Shown: positions 28,688 to 34,108 of the stretch, one piece after another
Layout: the number at the start of each line of letters is the position of its first letter
Position numbering within the stretch: position 1 is the stretch's first letter
Assembly (NCBI GenBank): GCA_041663185.1
Contig: JBAZQY010000002.1
Coordinates: forward strand, 74,629 to 138,628
Direction: 5' to 3'
DNA length: 64,000 bases
Origin: Minisyncoccota bacterium
GTDB taxonomy: Bacteria; Patescibacteriota; Minisyncoccia; Phycocordibacterales; UBA9973
The notes under the pieces: model-generated
The model's input: only the letters and a program-made list of their open reading frames with translations
Told to the model about the DNA's origin: nothing
Database searches by the model: none
Translations under genes and position numbers: made by a program

Positions 28688-28693
28688 ATAAGA

Positions 28694-28716
28694 TTAGCAA
28701 GGACAGTCCTTGCTAA
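28694..28716. repeat. Palindromic repeat TTAGCAAGGAC-AGT-CCTTGCTAA. It belongs to a four-copy hairpin family (28.7-29.9 kb).
   Basis: It is a perfect inverted repeat. It is related to the copies at 29041, 29643 and 29842. Confidence 0.6.
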
Positions 28717-28998
28717 AAAAAGAAATAGATCAAAAATTAAATTAAAAATATGGTTATAGATATTGAACTTACTTTGAATAGATTCGGTTTTGGGAAAATT
28801 GCCAAGAATAAATTTCAATTTTTTTGGTTAAGATTTTCAAAGTGGAATATCCCGGGCAAATACTCCATCTCTTTCGAGATAAATTGGCGAAAGAAAGAAG
28901 AAAATAAAAATTTATGATTTACACCCCAAAAATGCAACAAGCGACAAGATTTGCGTCAAAAACGCATCAAAAATCCCCAATGACATTCCAACATTCTC

Positions 28999-29026
28999 AA
29001 GAATGTGAGAATGTTGATAATATAGA
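28999..29026. promoter_or_regulatory. Palindromic operator-like site, candidate ArsR-family box (CAACATTCTCAAGAATGTGAGAATGTTG).
   Basis: It is a perfect 11-bp inverted repeat around AAGAA. It is preceded by the half-site-like gacattcc. It belongs to a four-member family. Confidence 0.5.
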
Positions 29027-29040
29027 TTGTGAGAAAATTA

Positions 29041-29069
29041 GGACTAGCAAGAACAGTTCTTGCTAGTCC
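29041..29069. repeat. Palindromic repeat GGACTAGCAAGAAC-AGT-TCTTGCTAGTCC.
   Basis: It is a perfect 13-bp inverted repeat. It overlaps the 3' end of the minus-strand kinase-like gene. Confidence 0.6.
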
Positions 29070-29581
29070 TTTAGTAATTTCTCAATATTTAATTTTCTGG
29101 GACTGTTTGTTATGACAACCCTTTTATCTTTTATAGATTCTAATATGGCAAACATTTTCTTTCTATGACTTCTATTCCAATTTAATATCCACTTTAAGAA
29201 TTTATAATCAACTGTTTCTTTTTTGTCACTAGAAGTTCCATGTCTTTTTTCCAATTTCAAGCTAACCCTAATTGCTCTCTTTAAAACATTAAATAAATGT
29301 AAACGAGTGGGCATATCAACAAAAATTATAAGATCAGACCACTTTATTCTTGCTTCTAAGACAGAAGAATAATTTCCATCTACAACGCCAATCTCTTTTG
29401 AGAGAAATTCATTTTTACAAATATTTAACCATTCACTTTTTTCTTTCATTGACCAATCTGAGTTCAAAAGCAAATTATCTAGATGATAAATAGGATAACC
29501 TGTATATATGCTAATTCTATTAGCAAGAGTAGATTTACCTGAACCACTACCACCTAGGACTATTATCCTTTTGTATTTCAT
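29063..29581 (-). CDS. P-loop NTPase / nucleotide kinase-like protein (topology-modulation FlaR / AAA-kinase family).
   Basis: RIIVLGGSGSGKSTLA is the Walker A motif. The small size of about 170 aa fits. Confidence 0.55.
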   Translation of the reverse strand: MKYKRIIVLGGSGSGKSTLANRISIYTGYPIYHLDNLLLNSDWSMKEKSEWLNICKNEFLSKEIGVVDGNYSSVLEARIKWSDLIIFVDMPTRLHLFNVLKRAIRVSLKLEKRHGTSSDKKETVDYKFLKWILNWNRSHRKKMFAILESIKDKRVVITNSPRKLNIEKLLKD

Positions 29582-29642
29582 ATATTATATAATATCATTT
29601 TTAAATATCTTTTTAAACTAAAAGATAGTAACTAGCAAGAAC

Positions 29643-29663
29643 GGTTCTTACTAAAATAAGATA
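29643..29663. repeat. Palindromic repeat TAGCAAGAAC-GG-TTCTTACTA (one mismatch).
   Basis: It is an inverted repeat of the same family as 28694, 29041 and 29842. Confidence 0.5.
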
Positions 29664-29717
29664 AAGTTCTCTAGCCCGCTAAAGTAACAAAACCTTCTAA
29701 GCCTCCCATGACATTCC

Positions 29718-29743
29718 GACATTCTCAAGAATGTGAGAATGTC
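29718..29743. promoter_or_regulatory. Palindromic operator-like site (GACATTCTCAAGAATGTGAGAATGTC), second copy of the 28999 variant.
   Basis: It is a perfect inverted repeat. It is preceded by gacattcc. It lies between the divergent kinase-like gene and the acyP fragment. Confidence 0.5.
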
Positions 29744-29756
29744 AAATATGCAAAAG

Positions 29757-29840
29757 AAAATTATTTTAAAAATTTACGGGAAAGTGCAGGGAGTGTTTTT
29801 TTGTGATTCGGTGAAAAGAAAAGCCGAAGAGCTCGACTTG
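29757..29840 (+). pseudogene. Truncated 5' fragment of an acylphosphatase gene, paralogous to the intact acyP at 31014.
   Basis: It translates IILKIYGKVQGVFFCDSVKRKAEELDLIS then stops. This matches INLKIYGRVQGVFFRDSAQKEARKLGL of the full gene. It is preceded by the same operator type. Confidence 0.55.
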
Positions 29841-29841
29841 A

Positions 29842-29869
29842 TTAGCTAGAATCGTTCTAGCTAGCTAAT
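29842..29869. repeat. Palindromic repeat TTAGCTAGAA-TCG-TTCTAGCTAGCTAA.
   Basis: It is an imperfect inverted repeat related to the TAGCAAGAAC family. It lies immediately after the acyP fragment. Confidence 0.5.
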
Positions 29870-29913
29870 TCAAGTCAAGAACTCTCTTTTTTGCTTTGTG
29901 GTATAATTAGAAT

Positions 29914-30582
29914 ATGAAAAAAATATATTTATATCTAATAATAGTGATAGTTATTGGAGTAGGGGCATGGTTTGTATTTAATAGTCAATTAACAAAAAAG
30001 CAAGATGCGGGCTTGGCAAATCCTGCCTCGGTATTTTGCGTAAACAATGGCGGACGGCTGGACATAAGAACTAATGCAAGTGGGGGGCAAACAGGGTATT
30101 GTATTTTTAAAGACAATAGCGAATGTGAGGAATGGGCGTATTCTCGAGGTGAATGTAAACAAGGCGAGCCCGTTTTGCCAGAGACAGAAATATCGATTCG
30201 CTTGTATTATTATAACCCCGCATTGGATCAAGGTCCTGGCGGAGCGCAATGCACTTCCAAGGGGCTTGTCGCCGTCGAGCGCATGATTCCAAAGACCACT
30301 ATGCCACTTACAGAATCGATCAAGCTTTTATTGAAGGGTGAGATATCGCAGGCAGAAAAAGCTCAAGGTCTTACCAGCGAGTTTCCACTCGCCGGTGTGA
30401 CACTCGCTCTGGCAACAGTCGAGAATGGAGTCGCAACGCTAACCTTTAGTGACTCTCAAAATAAAACTGGCGGTGGGTCATGCCGAGTCGCCATTTTATG
30501 GGCTCAAATCGAAGCCACAGCAAAACAATTTCCGACTGTTACCTCAGTCCGCTTTTTGCCAGAAGAATTGTTCCAACCCTAA
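29914..30582 (+). CDS. Secreted or lipoprotein with a DUF333 (putative-haemolysin-like) N-terminal domain and a GerMN-like C-terminal domain.
   Basis: A signal or TM peptide is present. NPASVFCVNNGGRLDIRT...GYCIFKDNSECEEWAYSRGEC is the DUF333 pattern. LYYYNPALDQGPGGAQC...LKGEIS is GerMN-like. Confidence 0.45.
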   Translation: MKKIYLYLIIVIVIGVGAWFVFNSQLTKKQDAGLANPASVFCVNNGGRLDIRTNASGGQTGYCIFKDNSECEEWAYSRGECKQGEPVLPETEISIRLYYYNPALDQGPGGAQCTSKGLVAVERMIPKTTMPLTESIKLLLKGEISQAEKAQGLTSEFPLAGVTLALATVENGVATLTFSDSQNKTGGGSCRVAILWAQIEATAKQFPTVTSVRFLPEELFQP

Positions 30583-30653
30583 ATAATTTTGGGATAGGGG
30601 GGAGGGGGCGCATTTTCGAATCTTACAAATTAAAATAACCCCATATTAATCAT

Positions 30654-30691
30654 TAACATTCCAACATTCTGCAGAATGTTGGAATGTTAAA
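30654..30691. promoter_or_regulatory. Perfect 38-bp palindrome TTAACATTCCAACATTCTGCAGAATGTTGGAATGTTAA upstream of the ArsR-family regulator; a likely autoregulatory operator.
   Basis: It is a perfect inverted repeat with duplicated AACATTC half-sites. It lies 24 nt upstream of the arsR-like ATG. Confidence 0.6.
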
Positions 30692-30714
30692 TTAAATATG
30701 CTAATATAGTAAAT

Positions 30715-30984
30715 ATGAGAAAAACATCAAAACAATTAGAACGTTATTTTAAGGGGGTATCTAATCATAGACGAATTGATATTTTATTAGCGGTAGAAAA
30801 AAATGAGGGGATCTCAGTTGAAGAAATTGCAAATTTATTGGAGACAAATTTTAAAACTATTTCTCAGCACACACATTCATTAGTTCGCGCAGGGCTTTTG
30901 AATAAAAAATATGCCGGTCGGCAGGTCACACATTCGCTTTCTCCATACGGAAGATCTTTTATAAAGTTCATGAAATCATTCTAA
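30715..30984 (+). CDS. ArsR/SmtB-family winged-helix transcriptional regulator.
   Basis: LERYFKGVSNHRRIDILLAV...ISVEEIANLLETNFKTISQHTHSLVRAGLL is the ArsR HTH signature. Confidence 0.7.
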   Translation: MRKTSKQLERYFKGVSNHRRIDILLAVEKNEGISVEEIANLLETNFKTISQHTHSLVRAGLLNKKYAGRQVTHSLSPYGRSFIKFMKSF

Positions 30985-31006
30985 CATTCTGCAGAATGTT
31001 AGAATG
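30977..31006. promoter_or_regulatory. Palindromic operator CATTCTAACATTCTGCAGAATGTTAGAATG upstream of acyP.
   Basis: It is a perfect 30-bp inverted repeat. It overlaps the end of the arsR-like gene and lies about 8 nt upstream of the acyP ATG. Confidence 0.6.
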
Positions 31007-31013
31007 TTAAAAT

Positions 31014-31286
31014 ATGTCAAAGAGGATAAATCTAAAAATTTATGGTCGGGTGCAAGGAGTGTTTTTTCGCGATTCGGCACAAAAGGAAGCGAGGAAGCTT
31101 GGCTTGGTCGGCTTTGCGCGTAATGATGTGGATGGGACCGTTTATATTGAAGTCGAAGGAGAAGAAGAAAAATTAAATGAATTCATCAAATGGTGTCAAA
31201 ACGGTCCCGACCATGCTCAAGTAGATAAAGTAGAAATGCAATGGCTCAAGGCCACCGAAACATTTTCCGATTTTAAAATAAAATAA
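31014..31286 (+). CDS. acyP: Acylphosphatase
   Basis: IYGRVQGVFFRDSAQKEARKLGLVGFARNDVDGTVYIEVEGEEEKLNEFIKWCQNGP is the acylphosphatase signature. It is 90 aa. Confidence 0.85.
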   Translation: MSKRINLKIYGRVQGVFFRDSAQKEARKLGLVGFARNDVDGTVYIEVEGEEEKLNEFIKWCQNGPDHAQVDKVEMQWLKATETFSDFKIK

Positions 31287-31304
31287 TAATGATATAATAG
31301 AAAG

Positions 31305-31697
31305 ATGCAAAGCGATTGGTACGCACAACTCATCAAGCCTTCTTGGGCGCCCTCTAGCTGGCTTTTTGGGCCGGTTTGGACTTTTTTGTATGCCATCATT
31401 TTTGTTTCTTTCGGTACGGTTTTTTATAAAGTTTTTAAAAAAGAGATTCCAGTAATCGTTGCTCTGCCTTTTGTTTTGAATTTGATTTTCAATTTCTCTT
31501 TTACTTATTTACAATTTGGATTAAAAAGTAATATATTAGCGGCTATTGATATACTACTAGTTCTTGGCACTTTGATTTGGGCGATGATAGCGATTTGGCC
31601 TCATTTACGTTGGGTGGTTCTCGCCAATATTCCATATCTCTTGTGGGTTTCCTTTGCCACAATTTTACAATTAACTATTACTTACTTGAATAAATAA
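31305..31697 (+). CDS. TspO/MBR-like tryptophan-rich membrane protein (short).
   Basis: LIKPSWAPSSWLFGPVWTFLYAIIFVSFG matches the TspO N-terminal motif. There are 4-5 TM helices in 130 aa. Confidence 0.45.
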   Translation: MQSDWYAQLIKPSWAPSSWLFGPVWTFLYAIIFVSFGTVFYKVFKKEIPVIVALPFVLNLIFNFSFTYLQFGLKSNILAAIDILLVLGTLIWAMIAIWPHLRWVVLANIPYLLWVSFATILQLTITYLNK

Positions 31698-32135
31698 ATG
31701 GAAGTTTTTTTTATTTTTATTACTTTAGCTGGTTTTATTATAGGACTTGGAGCAGTGACGGTTATTGATCTGCACGGCTTTCTTGGACGAAAATCAAGTT
31801 ATTGGACTGAAGCAACTATTCGCACTCATAAAATAACAAAACCTTTGATATGGATTGGTATTCTTCTTGTAAGTATAGGACACATTTTTCTTGCCAAGTT
31901 TGAAATAATCAATGCTTACCAATTAGAAATTAGATCTTTAATCATTGTTCTTTTGATAGTCAATGGGATTTTTCTTTCTTTTGTCGTAAGCCCAGCACTT
32001 CTTGCACAAGAAAAAGAAGGAAGGCAAAAAGAGCTTTTGCCAAAAATTCTGCAAAATAAAATAACAGCAAGTTTTGTTGTCTCATTTTTAGGCTGGTGGG
32101 GTTTGGTATATCTGTTTGCAATTATTTTTATATGA
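31698..32135 (+). CDS. Hypothetical multi-TM membrane protein.
   Basis: The ORF has 4 hydrophobic helices. There is no family. Confidence 0.3.
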   Translation: MEVFFIFITLAGFIIGLGAVTVIDLHGFLGRKSSYWTEATIRTHKITKPLIWIGILLVSIGHIFLAKFEIINAYQLEIRSLIIVLLIVNGIFLSFVVSPALLAQEKEGRQKELLPKILQNKITASFVVSFLGWWGLVYLFAIIFI

Positions 32136-32437
32136 GAGTCTGGGATATACATCCGAAACATTTATGTAGAAAACACTTACTGGCTGAGCACCGGGAACTT
32201 CACGGACTCTGGAATATTTTAACAATTCACAAGGCTAAGGGTGGATATTCTAGACATCCGGAGACCTTACGTTGGGTCGGGAAAACCAGAGCTCTTTATG
32301 ACAGGCATGAAGCATTAATAAAAGAATTCAAACGTCGAGGGTACAATCATTATACTCCGCTTAATAAGAAGTTCGCTAAAGGGAAGAAAGATCAGAATAT
32401 TTTTATAAATACAGTAAAAGAGCAAAAAAAATTCTGA
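32132..32437 (+). CDS. Pyrimidine-dimer DNA glycosylase (T4 endonuclease V / DenV-like).
   Basis: MRVWDIHPKHLCRKHLLAEHRELHGLW matches the T4 endoV N-terminal catalytic helix (..L.AEhRELp). The start is adjusted to the internal ATG. Confidence 0.6.
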   Translation: MRVWDIHPKHLCRKHLLAEHRELHGLWNILTIHKAKGGYSRHPETLRWVGKTRALYDRHEALIKEFKRRGYNHYTPLNKKFAKGKKDQNIFINTVKEQKKF

Positions 32438-32506: not shown

Positions 32507-34108
32507 ATGACTCAAAAGGAAGCACTTTCGATTTTAAAAACTGGTGCAAATGTTTTTCTGACAGGAGAACCTGGAGCCGGGAAAACTTACACGATAAATG
32601 AATATGTAAAATATTTGCGTGATGCTGGTGTTGAAGTAGCCATTACGGCTTCGACGGGAATTGCCGCGACTCATATTGGCGGAATGACGATTCACTCATG
32701 GAGTGGGATTGGTATAAAAAGAAAACTTGATAAATATGATTTAGATAAACTTGGAAGTAATGAATATGTCGTTAAAAGAATTAACCGAGCCAAAGTACTT
32801 GTCATTGATGAAGTTTCAATGCTCTCGGCTGTGACTTTGTCGATGGTGGATGCAGTTTGTCGAGAAGTCAGGCGAAGTTCTGAGGCTTTTGGTGGTTTGC
32901 AAGTAATATTTGTTGGAGATTTTTTTCAATTACCACCAATAATAAAAAAAATGGTTGATGAGGAAATACAAATCGATGAAGATTTACAGATGACAATGAT
33001 GCCCGAAGGTAAAGAGCAAATATTTGCGTATGATTCGCAAGCGTGGCAAAGGGCAAGGCCGGTAGTTTGCTATATTAGTGAACAGTATCGTCAGGACGAC
33101 GAAGATTTTTTATCAATTCTCTCAGCAATCAGAAAAAATGATTTTCAAGATAAGCATTTAAAGAAAATTGAATCGCGGGTGGTTGATGAATTGAATTTCC
33201 CTAAAAATGTACCAAAACTTTTTTCGCATAATGTGAATGTCGATTTTGTAAATACTGAAACTCTTTCTAAGATTGACAATCCAACAGTTGTTTTTGAAAT
33301 GACTTCGAAAGGCCCAGATGCGCTTGTAAATATTTTAAAAAAGGGATGCCTATCGCCAGAAACTTTGTCTTTAAAAGTCGGAGCAGAAGTGATGTTTACA
33401 AAAAATAATCAAAAAGAAGGATTTGTAAATGGAACACTTGGAGAAGTTGTTGATTTTAAAAATGGGACTGGTTACCCACTTGTCCAGACGAAAAAAGGAA
33501 AAACAATTTTAGTCGAGCCGATGGAGTGGAGTGTTGAAGAAAATGGAAAAATTAAAGCCAAGATTATACAAATGCCACTACGGCTGGCTTGGGCAATAAC
33601 TGTCCACAAAAGCCAAGGGATGAGTATGGACTCGGCCTTGATGGATTTATCTGAAGTATTTGAATATGGCCAGGGATATGTGGCTCTTTCGCGAGTTAGA
33701 CGCTTGTCGGGGCTTCACATTATTGGATTAAATGAGAAAGCTTTCAAGGTTCATCCTGATGTTCTATCGAAAGATAAAATATTTAAAGAAGAATCATCTG
33801 AAGCCGAAAAAGCTTTTGCTCAAATTCCACAAGATGAGATGTCAACAATGCATGATAATTTTATTTTTGCCTCAGGGGGAACTCCTCGGAAAAATATTCC
33901 AAGTAAAAATAAAGGTTCCAAACTAGAAGAAATTAGAAAAAAATACCCAAATGCTTACAGGTCTTGGAGTAAAGAAGAAGATGATAAATTGCGGCATCTT
34001 TTTGTAAAAAAGATAAAAGCGCGAGATATCGCTCGTGAATTTGGGCGCAAAACCGGCGCAATCCATGCCCGATTAGAAAAACTTGGTTTAGAAGAAAAAA
34101 AGAAATAA
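32507..34108 (+). CDS. Pif1/RecD-like SF1 DNA helicase with a C-terminal HTH.
   Basis: GEPGAGKTY is the Walker A motif. ITASTGIAATHIGGMTIHSW, VIDEVSML (Walker B) and AITVHKSQGM (motif VI) follow. The C-terminus has DIAREFGRKTGAIHARL. Confidence 0.75.
   Translation: MTQKEALSILKTGANVFLTGEPGAGKTYTINEYVKYLRDAGVEVAITASTGIAATHIGGMTIHSWSGIGIKRKLDKYDLDKLGSNEYVVKRINRAKVLVIDEVSMLSAVTLSMVDAVCREVRRSSEAFGGLQVIFVGDFFQLPPIIKKMVDEEIQIDEDLQMTMMPEGKEQIFAYDSQAWQRARPVVCYISEQYRQDDEDFLSILSAIRKNDFQDKHLKKIESRVVDELNFPKNVPKLFSHNVNVDFVNTETLSKIDNPTVVFEMTSKGPDALVNILKKGCLSPETLSLKVGAEVMFTKNNQKEGFVNGTLGEVVDFKNGTGYPLVQTKKGKTILVEPMEWSVEENGKIKAKIIQMPLRLAWAITVHKSQGMSMDSALMDLSEVFEYGQGYVALSRVRRLSGLHIIGLNEKAFKVHPDVLSKDKIFKEESSEAEKAFAQIPQDEMSTMHDNFIFASGGTPRKNIPSKNKGSKLEEIRKKYPNAYRSWSKEEDDKLRHLFVKKIKARDIAREFGRKTGAIHARLEKLGLEEKKK

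Follow-up and report, generated by a model that had tools for sequence, protein, structure and literature searches.

A probable autoregulated winged-helix repressor and its four-hexamer palindromic operator in Patescibacteria

We describe here a regulator-operator pair found in a 64-kb stretch of a Minisyncoccota bacterium contig (JBAZQY010000002.1, positions 74,629 to 138,628; hereafter the window), in which an 89-amino acid winged helix-turn-helix (wHTH) protein of the ArsR/SmtB superfamily is encoded between two copies of a long composite palindrome, ACATTC-N2-ACATTC-N4-GAATGT-N2-GAATGT. The protein and the palindrome are conserved as a pair, in the same geometry, in hundreds of Patescibacteria and in some genomes of the Planctomycetota-Verrucomicrobiota-Chlamydiota (PVC) group. 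Taken together, our observations are best explained if the protein is an autoregulated repressor and the four-hexamer palindrome is its operator, which we consider probable. An initial annotation of the window had suggested that the palindromes are operators of the ArsR-like protein and that this protein regulates itself and the acylphosphatase gene acyP. It missed the scale of the phenomenon, which is a lineage-wide, even cross-phylum, regulator-operator pair and not a local oddity.

Four copies of the composite palindrome are present between positions 28983 and 31007 of the window, none of them more than 2.1 kb away from the regulator gene (sites i to iv, of which i and ii are termed operators O1 and O2; Table 1). 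The inner motif of the palindrome, the 16-mer ACATTCNNNNGAATGT, occurs four times (at 28991, 29719, 30664 and 30984) against an expectation of 0.19, and none of 100 shuffled sequences contained four copies. Similarly, the double half-site ACATTCNNACATTC occurs eight times, with 0.62 occurrences expected, and these eight are exactly the arms of sites i to iv. Motif scans of the window detected neither palindrome copies nor half-sites in the remaining 62 kb. Within the window the palindrome is thus not a generic, ubiquitous repeat, and the lack of other copies together with the tight link to the wHTH gene also argues against a dispersed palindromic repeat of the repetitive extragenic palindrome or miniature inverted-repeat transposable element type.

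All four sites had been taken for perfect palindromes. Four sites are indeed present, but only O1, with the core sequence ACATTC-CA-ACATTC-TGCA-GAATGT-TG-GAATGT, is perfect over 38 bp. Sites iii and iv are imperfect, with a left spacer of CG or CA against GA on the right and TCAA at the centre, and they retain the four hexamers. The outermost left hexamer of O2 reads TCATTC because it consists of the last two codons of the regulator gene, and this hexamer and its spacer together make up these two codons and the stop codon (TCA TTC TAA). The centre of O1 is located 44 nt upstream of the regulator ATG, and that of O2 lies 10 nt past the last sense codon of the regulator and 23 nt before the acyP ATG.

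Two samples taken from opposite directions connect the protein with the palindrome. For the first, an alignment of 25 homologues was used to retrieve 545 metagenomic stretches, of which the best 80 (64-82% identity) were kept; in loci with enough flanking sequence, a palindrome was accepted at up to 4 mismatches in 24 bases, and an upstream site had to be within 150 nt. Of 79 loci, 75 have a palindrome upstream of the homologue gene; in 74 of 76, a second one is found at the 3' end of the gene, where it overlaps the stop codon and the two codons before it. In most of these 74 loci the centre of the 3' site is exactly 10 nt beyond the last sense codon, and most homologues end in ACA TTC TAA, compared with TCA TTC TAA in the window. 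For the second sample, 596 Gb of contigs, with one genome per species, were scanned for a three-hexamer pattern of 18 specified bases, for which about 17 chance matches are expected. At least 120 genome stretches matched, most of them on both strands, that is, with all four hexamers and 24 specified bases. Among the matches listed, nearly all are metagenome-assembled genomes (MAGs) of Patescibacteria from many named lineages, with a few PVC genomes of high guanine-plus-cytosine (GC) content, and a wHTH homologue is directly adjacent to the palindrome in 24 of the 120 stretches. By chance, a gene present once or twice per genome of about 1 Mb would be found in approximately 1-2% of 8-kb stretches.

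In the motif-first loci with cleanly called starts, the palindrome centre is positioned 31-49 nt upstream of the homologue ATG, and several of the loci with a homologue carry a second palindrome at its 3' end. In a set of 298 unique sites, conservation reaches 90-100% at the hexamer positions, and the spacers and centre are variable. Based on crude calling of open reading frames (ORFs), 121 of 136 sites are intergenic, and the distances from centre to start codon cluster at 15-75 nt. The complete layout O1-gene-O2-acyP was found again in locus L120, and the regulator gene adjoins acyP in L078. O1, the regulator gene, O2 and the next gene constitute a conserved module, and the support for the pairing is about the best that comparative genomics can give. 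Both samples bear out the suggestion that the palindromes are operators of the ArsR-like protein, and the conservation of the flanking sites, with the recurrence of the layout in L120, makes autoregulation and control of acyP very probable.

The identities of the ArsR-like gene, of acyP and of the DUF333 gene were confirmed by Pfam, with the regulator scoring 25.8 bits against HTH_5/ArsR (cut-off 22). In a profile search of the PDB the regulator matched HlyU at 1e-7, as well as ArsR and CadC. An AF2 model of the protein (predicted local distance difference test score 90.8) shows the topology α1-α2-α3-αR-β1-β2-α5, which is the order expected for the family, and Foldseek searches with this model returned MarR, HlyU and CadC. 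The pNOB8 centromere-binding wHTH protein AspA was also among the Foldseek matches, at ranks 37 and 41; to judge from the model, this likeness is that of the generic wHTH fold. The regulator scored below all NCBIfam subfamily cut-offs, for example, those of HTH_metalloreg (41.8 versus 55 bits), SdpR (29.5 versus 100) and CmtR, and it therefore belongs to an unnamed subfamily. Inspection of the alignments revealed no recognizable metal site, either an α3N cysteine or α5 His/Asp/Glu ligands, in the regulator or the family consensus: both are devoid of cysteine, and none of the conserved residues in the α5 helix SPYGKxFLKFMKTF is His, Asp or Glu. In the recognition helix, K47, T48, S50, Q51, H52 and T53 are invariant in the family alignments. 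Homologues number 756 at E<=1e-3, with identities of 74-100% among the 120 matches listed; the fully identical match is a protein from a MAG of a Candidatus Paceibacterota bacterium (P0001). Sequence and model characterize the regulator as a minimal, non-metal-type member of the ArsR/SmtB winged-helix proteins. One Giovannonibacteria MAG encodes two regulator paralogues with the same operator sequence (P0038, P0064), and in L173:983-3271 two regulator copies with near-identical promoter regions are situated about 2 kb apart.

Table 1. Positions in the window of the regulator gene, the palindromic sites, predicted promoter elements, neighbouring genes and hairpins
Feature	Positions	Strand	Description
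Regulator gene	30715..30984	+	89-aa winged-helix protein, ArsR/SmtB superfamily; Pfam HTH_5
Operator O1 (site i)	30653..30690		Perfect 38-bp palindrome; core 30656-30687
Operator O2 (site ii)	30976..31007		TCATTC-TA-ACATTC-TGCA-GAATGT-TA-GAATGT; perfect over 30 bp (30977-31006)
Site iii	29711..29742		ACATTC-CG-ACATTC-TCAA-GAATGT-GA-GAATGT; 21 nt before ATG of acyP fragment
Site iv	28983..29014		ACATTC-CA-ACATTC-TCAA-GAATGT-GA-GAATGT; without intact gene behind
Predicted regulator promoter	30679..30707	+	-35-like TTGGAA 30679-30684, 17-nt spacer, -10-like TAATAT 30702-30707
Predicted extended -10 for acyP	30997..31005	+	TGtTAGAAT within O2 right arm; ATG 31014, 8 nt downstream
acyP	31014..31286	+	Acylphosphatase, 90 aa, first gene past O2; Pfam, NCBIfam
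TspO	31305-31697	+	After acyP, co-directional; Pfam, NCBIfam
Membrane ORF	31698-32135	+	145 aa; no family in Pfam or NCBIfam
Pyrimidine-dimer glycosylase	32096-32437	+	Start overlaps 145-aa ORF by 40 nt
Superfamily 1B (SF1B) helicase	32507-34108	+	In co-directional run with acyP
DUF333+Germane lipoprotein-like gene	29914..30582	+	Upstream of O1; Pfam
Truncated acyP-like ORF	29748..29849	+	33 codons (29748-29846) and stop 29847-29849; ends in hairpin 4
P-loop kinase-like gene	29063..29581	-	Between sites iv and iii; bracketed by hairpins 2 and 3
Hairpin 1	28695..28715		TAGCAAGGACAGTCCTTGCTA; just past stop of 175-aa gene
Hairpin 2	29040..29070		Perfect 15-1-15 palindrome; 3' end of minus-strand kinase-like gene
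Hairpin 3	29633..29653		Between site iii and start of kinase-like gene
Hairpin 4	29843..29863		TAGCTAGAATCGTTCTAGCTA; ends acyP fragment; inverted repeat extends to 29832-29874

Promoter geometry and candidate targets

The position of the operators relative to predicted promoter elements suggests how the protein might act. At O1, the right arm of the palindrome forms the -35-like hexamer TTGGAA of the predicted regulator promoter, and the regulator ATG follows 7 nt after the -10. Among 90 O1 sites, TTGGAA is present at the equivalent position in 64; the best -10-like hexamer, which often has TG before it, is most frequently separated from TTGGAA by a spacer of 17 nt and from the start codon by 6 nt. 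In silico, the geometry of O1 sites is accordingly TTGGAA-17-TAnnnT, a palindromic operator over the regulator's own promoter. At O2, it is an extended -10 that is predicted to fall within the right arm, and site iii has the same geometry (GAGAAT at 29735-29740, ATG at 29748). Thirteen sites have their centre 21-27 nt away from a start codon, and in 8 of these the second position of the right-arm spacer is A. Transcripts from the O1 and O2 promoters would then be leaderless or near-leaderless. With a -35 or -10 inside the operator and the transcript start at or beside the start codon, a bound protein would be expected to block polymerase.

We propose that the 89-amino acid protein binds the composite four-hexamer operator, possibly as two dimers per 32-bp site, to judge from the way in which other wHTH dimers occupy overlapping sites, and that it acts by occlusion of RNA polymerase from the promoter. 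At O1, which covers the -35 of the regulator's own promoter, binding would lead to autorepression. At O2, with its extended -10, binding would control the next gene, which is acyP in the window, and probably also tspO, the unknown ORF, the pyrimidine-dimer glycosylase gene and the helicase gene; these five genes may form one operon. Extra copies of the palindrome are located upstream of genes that vary and have for the most part accessory or damage-repair functions. In the window, sites iii and iv are presumably such copies left by local rearrangement, with site iii still in front of a dead acyP 5' piece. Looping of the DNA between O1 and O2 was considered and rejected, as their spacing of 304-340 bp shows no helical phasing (vector strength 0.18-0.25).

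A number of points weigh against this explanation. Its basis is co-occurrence and geometry, the sign of regulation (repression) is deduced from site position, and the protein-first sample comprises the 80 closest relatives. The promoter elements are matches of moderate quality: a generic promoter scan of the window listed neither of the predicted O1 and O2 promoters, in the case of the regulator promoter because 8 of 12 consensus positions match, and TGGAAT, a poor -10, is found in 5 of the 13 close-range sites. One would expect a core regulon to be retained with a conserved regulator, whereas the regulator itself is the sole constant target and the downstream genes have no common pathway. Finally, the palindrome is symmetric past the conserved hexamers, which is more than a symmetric protein needs, and the covariation of spacers and flanks described below points to what may be an additional or alternative role as a hairpin.

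The genes associated with the sites in other genomes are diverse. Recurrent neighbours of the regulator encode Germane/DUF333 proteins, SF1B helicase, MsrAB, GIY-YIG, NUDIX, TspO and acyP. Germane-type neighbours were found again in 12 loci, and acyP, TspO and the helicase are near the regulator or palindromes in 4, 6 and 7 other loci, respectively. NUDIX hydrolases are the commonest family downstream, accounting for 7 of 105 downstream ORFs. Further genes behind sites encode TspO, acyP, MsrA, MsrB, PolA, iPGM, PGK, TGT, glycosyltransferases, the ExoVII large subunit, an HhH-GPD glycosylase, kinases and a RhuM/Fic protein, and restriction-enzyme-like proteins (judged from their sequence) follow some sites. 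We rejected a coherent regulon theme: MsrA, MsrB, HhH-GPD, ExoVII, PolA and TspO hint at repair, but glycosyltransferases, kinases, restriction-modification and housekeeping genes are represented too. The downstream genes are so mixed that no single pathway can be claimed, and a damage-repair or house-cleaning flavour of the targets is visible without being exclusive.

Perfect 32-mers are also present in long contigs of 58-69% GC labelled Kiritimatiellia, Verrucomicrobia or Planctomycetota. The PVC-group loci with perfect palindromes, on long contigs of 55-69% GC, are L046, L085, L105 (Kiritimatiellia MAG JBAZEM01), L096 (a Planctomycetota scaffold of 5.97 Mb), L116, L104 and L056; in L046 the wHTH gene is present as well, together with O1 and O2. 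The nearest relatives of the "Kiritimatiellia" regulator protein are Patescibacteria proteins, and transfer or mislabelling is therefore possible for that MAG. Either the regulator-operator system crosses phylum boundaries, or some of the PVC MAGs are mislabelled or chimeric. On the Planctomycetaceae contig L056 (48-378), a homologue of 85 amino acids and 43% identity ends in SILTFLRTLE, and its last ten codons constitute a degenerate palindrome inside the coding sequence, GCATTC-TC-ACATTC-CTAA-GAACAC-TA-GAATGA; a perfect palindrome follows 60 nt downstream of the homologue. At L096:1029-1060, a palindrome lies over the last codons (encoding ATFSHS, followed by the stop codon) of a 368-amino acid ORF on the minus strand, which shows that the motif can be part of a gene's 3' end even where this gene is not the regulator.

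Symmetry, possible mobility and alternative roles

The symmetry of the palindrome beyond its hexamers calls for an explanation of its own. Among 129 sites that are not near the regulator gene, 83% have two complementary spacers, compared with 31% expected, and variants of the hexamers comprise 38 symmetric double changes against 2 non-complementary ones. Across 126 non-orthologous sites, the spacers and up to four flanking bases co-vary as complements, with a score of 0.181 versus 0.098 in shuffles; none of 500 shuffles reached this score, and slid controls gave 0.04-0.12. The two central bases of the palindrome are free, and many sites elsewhere are flanked by an A-tract to the left and by a T-tract to the right. 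The symmetry could originate either from a hairpin function, for example, as a terminator, or from template switching at quasipalindromes during replication, which can give arm symmetry without selection. A terminator scan of the window did not call the ACATTC palindromes, the stems of which are A+T-rich, and Rfam at a permissive E-value gave only chance matches to miRNA-like hairpins, far below threshold.

Near-perfect sites before unrelated genes are hard to attain via point mutation, which hints at copying of sites. One could imagine that the palindrome, with or without the wHTH gene, is a portable promoter-operator(-terminator) module copied between places and lineages, the regulon being the trail of a semi-selfish element. 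This we regard as unlikely. It is compatible with the repressor explanation in that the protein would still bind the palindrome, and several observations speak for it: near-perfect sites with at least 24 conserved bases, which are unlikely to arise de novo by point mutation, precede non-homologous genes; sites iii and iv share 95% identity along exactly 38 nt, and their flanks are unrelated; gene fragments adjoin sites; perfect sites are present in PVC genomes of 58-69% GC; some genomes have two regulator gene copies (the P0038/P0064 MAG and L173); and restriction-modification, GIY-YIG, NYN and RhuM/Fic genes are often found alongside. Against such a module, transposases and recombinases are not recurrent in the vicinity of the sites, neither target-site duplications nor longer conserved ends of an element were observed, flanks past about 40 bp are unrelated, viral contigs show no enrichment of the palindrome, and the sites per genome are apparently few, with none elsewhere in the 64 kb. 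An extended version, equally doubtful in our view, holds that the 32-40-bp palindrome is a self-maintaining module of promoter, operator and hairpin without a transposase of its own, which spreads with the wHTH protein to new genes and across phyla (Patescibacteria, Planctomycetota/Verrucomicrobiota) and owes its symmetry to hairpin-templated correction.

Specific types of mobile or segregating element received no support. Among the 1339 ORFs of 200 loci no recombinase or transposase is recurrent, and no recombinase was found in the window region. An integron-like cassette array (attC) was rejected on the basis of this lack of a recombinase in the 200 loci and the window region, as well as the location of the sites 5' of genes and their conserved sequence. 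The palindrome gave 3 one-strand matches in 2.9 million viral contigs, and a phage origin was rejected. In the same 200 loci no ParA/ParB-like partner is found among the recurrent neighbours; this absence and the generic nature of the structural likeness led us to reject an AspA-like partition centromere-binding protein.

It is improbable that the palindromes act mainly as nucleic-acid hairpins, such as bidirectional terminators, RNA-stability elements or cruciforms, and that the link to the wHTH protein is secondary. The complementary covariation of spacers and flanks, the 83% versus 31% symmetric spacers, the free, loop-like 2-nt centre, the A-tract/T-tract flanks at many sites and the location of some sites at gene 3' ends (O2 everywhere, and L096) would all suit a hairpin. 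Four ACATTC hexamers kept unchanged from phylum to phylum are not required for a hairpin, however, nor would a hairpin account for fixed positions relative to the start and stop codons of the regulator or for the overlap of sites with promoter elements; no Rfam family matches, and symmetry can also come from template switching without selection.

A role of the protein as an activator or dual regulator, or as an architectural, centromere-like organizer of the AspA type instead of a simple repressor, is likewise improbable. The operator arm provides only a weak -35 (TTGGAA), so that a bound protein could recruit polymerase, the regulator gene is bracketed by its own sites, and the AF2 model resembles AspA, although among many other wHTH proteins. 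O2-type sites, by contrast, cover the -10 and the start point, the classic position for a repressor, and an organizer is disfavoured by the lack of a recurrent ParA/ParB-like partner nearby, by the scattering of sites before ordinary genes and by an O1-O2 spacing without helical phasing.

Surroundings of the probable operators in the window

The initial annotation had explained the local arrangement by a cassette of about 1.1 kb, with the DUF333 gene and the regulator gene, that was inserted into or duplicated with the acyP promoter region. Our results do not support this. The truncated acyP-like fragment on which the idea was based does exist, but its boundaries are those given in Table 1 and not 29757-29840. 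It shares with the 5' end of the resident acyP 70% DNA identity over 104 nt and 58% protein identity (E=1e-9), and it is closer to the acyP of L120, with 70% protein identity. A recent tandem duplication of acyP was rejected in view of the 70% DNA identity. Operators ii and iii have none of their free positions in common. Sites iii and iv, on the other hand, are copies of one another: including a 6-nt left flank they are 95% identical over 38 nt (29705-29742 versus 28977-29014), and outside these 38 nt there is no similarity between their surroundings. A search upstream of sites iii and iv for a remnant of the 3' end of the wHTH gene showed a match of the ATG only, and this possibility was discarded. 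The acyP fragment and site iii look like the relic of an older or foreign, diverged operator-acyP unit, combined with a local copy of the 38-bp site, and the entire region 28690-29900, with the geneless site iv, the kinase-like gene on the opposite strand, and site iii with its dead acyP start, looks like rearrangement debris.

The kinase-like gene resembles "DNA topology modulation protein" (NCBIfam PRK08118, 129 bits, below the cut-off of 215) and has no homologue in the 200 other loci. A 50-amino acid ORF at 28914-29066 runs through palindrome iv and begins with the 21 residues MIYTPKMQQATRFASKTHQKS, which appear to resemble the N-termini of HD-domain hydrolases; it has no match in Pfam or in the other loci. 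Possibly this ORF is a further gene fragment that became joined to a copy of the operator.

A second hairpin family had been reported from the same region with four copies, and we find these as described. The family, TAGCAAGAACNGTTCTTGCTA, has copies at 28695, 29045, 29633 and 29843 with 0-3 mismatches (0 expected) and takes the stem form TAGCAAGAAC-N-GTTCTTGCTA; there are no further copies in the 64-kb window and no exact matches in the 200 other loci. Hairpins 1 and 2 were called terminator-like on the minus strand by the terminator scan. Compensatory changes are evident among the hairpins, namely, GGAC/GTCC in copy 1 by comparison to hairpin 2, and TAGCTAG/CTAGCTA in copy 4, and the stem itself therefore seems to be maintained. 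We read the TAGCAAGAAC hairpins as a separate local family of terminator-like stem-loops that is not part of the operator system.

Directly upstream, between 24661 and 28687, the window contains a type I restriction HsdR-like gene of 972 amino acids (judged by its sequence), a YgjP-like metallopeptidase gene (Pfam) and a 175-amino acid gene of no assigned family. Restriction-modification, GIY-YIG, NYN, RhuM/Fic and DUF559-type genes recur beside the module in other loci.

Relation to known systems

To our knowledge, almost nothing has been reported on transcriptional control in Patescibacteria (Candidate Phyla Radiation), which cannot be grown alone and have very few regulators. The pair described here is a concrete candidate for a regulator and its operator: the sites are exactly located, a promoter geometry with leaderless transcripts is predicted, and candidate target genes can be listed. 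It is one of the few regulatory circuits of Patescibacteria that is now directly testable, for which the 89-amino acid protein and a 38-bp oligonucleotide would suffice. The design is unusual in that the regulator gene contains part of an operator in its final codons and stop codon, the operator supplies promoter hexamers, and the symmetry of the operator exceeds the needs of protein contact. If the palindrome were indeed a portable module, it would illustrate a way in which small genomes connect new genes to a circuit. We found no published description of the motif or of the regulator subfamily in a literature search, the coverage of which was incomplete and which is thus no proof of novelty.

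The closest parallels for the protein are HlyU, SdpR, PagR and NolR, small non-metal autorepressors of the ArsR/SmtB superfamily, among which the best sequence and structure matches of the regulator fall. They share with it a length of about 90-100 amino acids, the fold α1-α2-α3-αR-wing-α5, an S-x-H motif in the recognition helix and a palindromic operator of their own before the gene. By comparison, the regulator described here remains under all NCBIfam cut-offs and is without Cys or α5 metal ligands. Its operator has a 6-2-6-4-6-2-6 architecture of four hexamers and 32-40 bp, whereas ArsR/SmtB autorepressors use 12-2-12 or 17-bp imperfect repeats, and in contrast to those, the stop codon of the gene is merged with a second operator and the operator sequence is conserved across phyla.

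Conservation of a long, near-perfect inverted repeat over many phyla, with a dedicated wHTH repressor acting at promoters, is reminiscent of HrcA and CIRCE, and CIRCE has been reported to act as a hairpin at the RNA level too. The two protein families are unrelated, however, and CIRCE is a 9-N9-9 repeat that governs one orthologous regulon (groE/dnaK), whereas the genes downstream of the palindrome vary and only the regulator is constant. Fur-type boxes are similar in being palindromes of repeated hexamers, probably bound by two dimers, that overlap a -35 or -10. Fur has a different fold; here two forward hexamers are followed by two reverse ones with a centre spacing of 8-10-8 bp, and two dimers per site would be the likely stoichiometry. 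Mobile promoters and template-switch hotspots are concepts from the literature. Putative mobile promoters resemble the sites described here as identical short promoter-bearing sequences before non-homologous genes, with the difference that no mechanism of mobility was identified here, and quasipalindrome template-switch hotspots resemble them in an arm-to-arm symmetry as expected from hairpin-templated correction. The pair is distinct from these known systems in its four-hexamer architecture, its stop-codon-fused operator, its built-in promoter hexamers and its variable targets.

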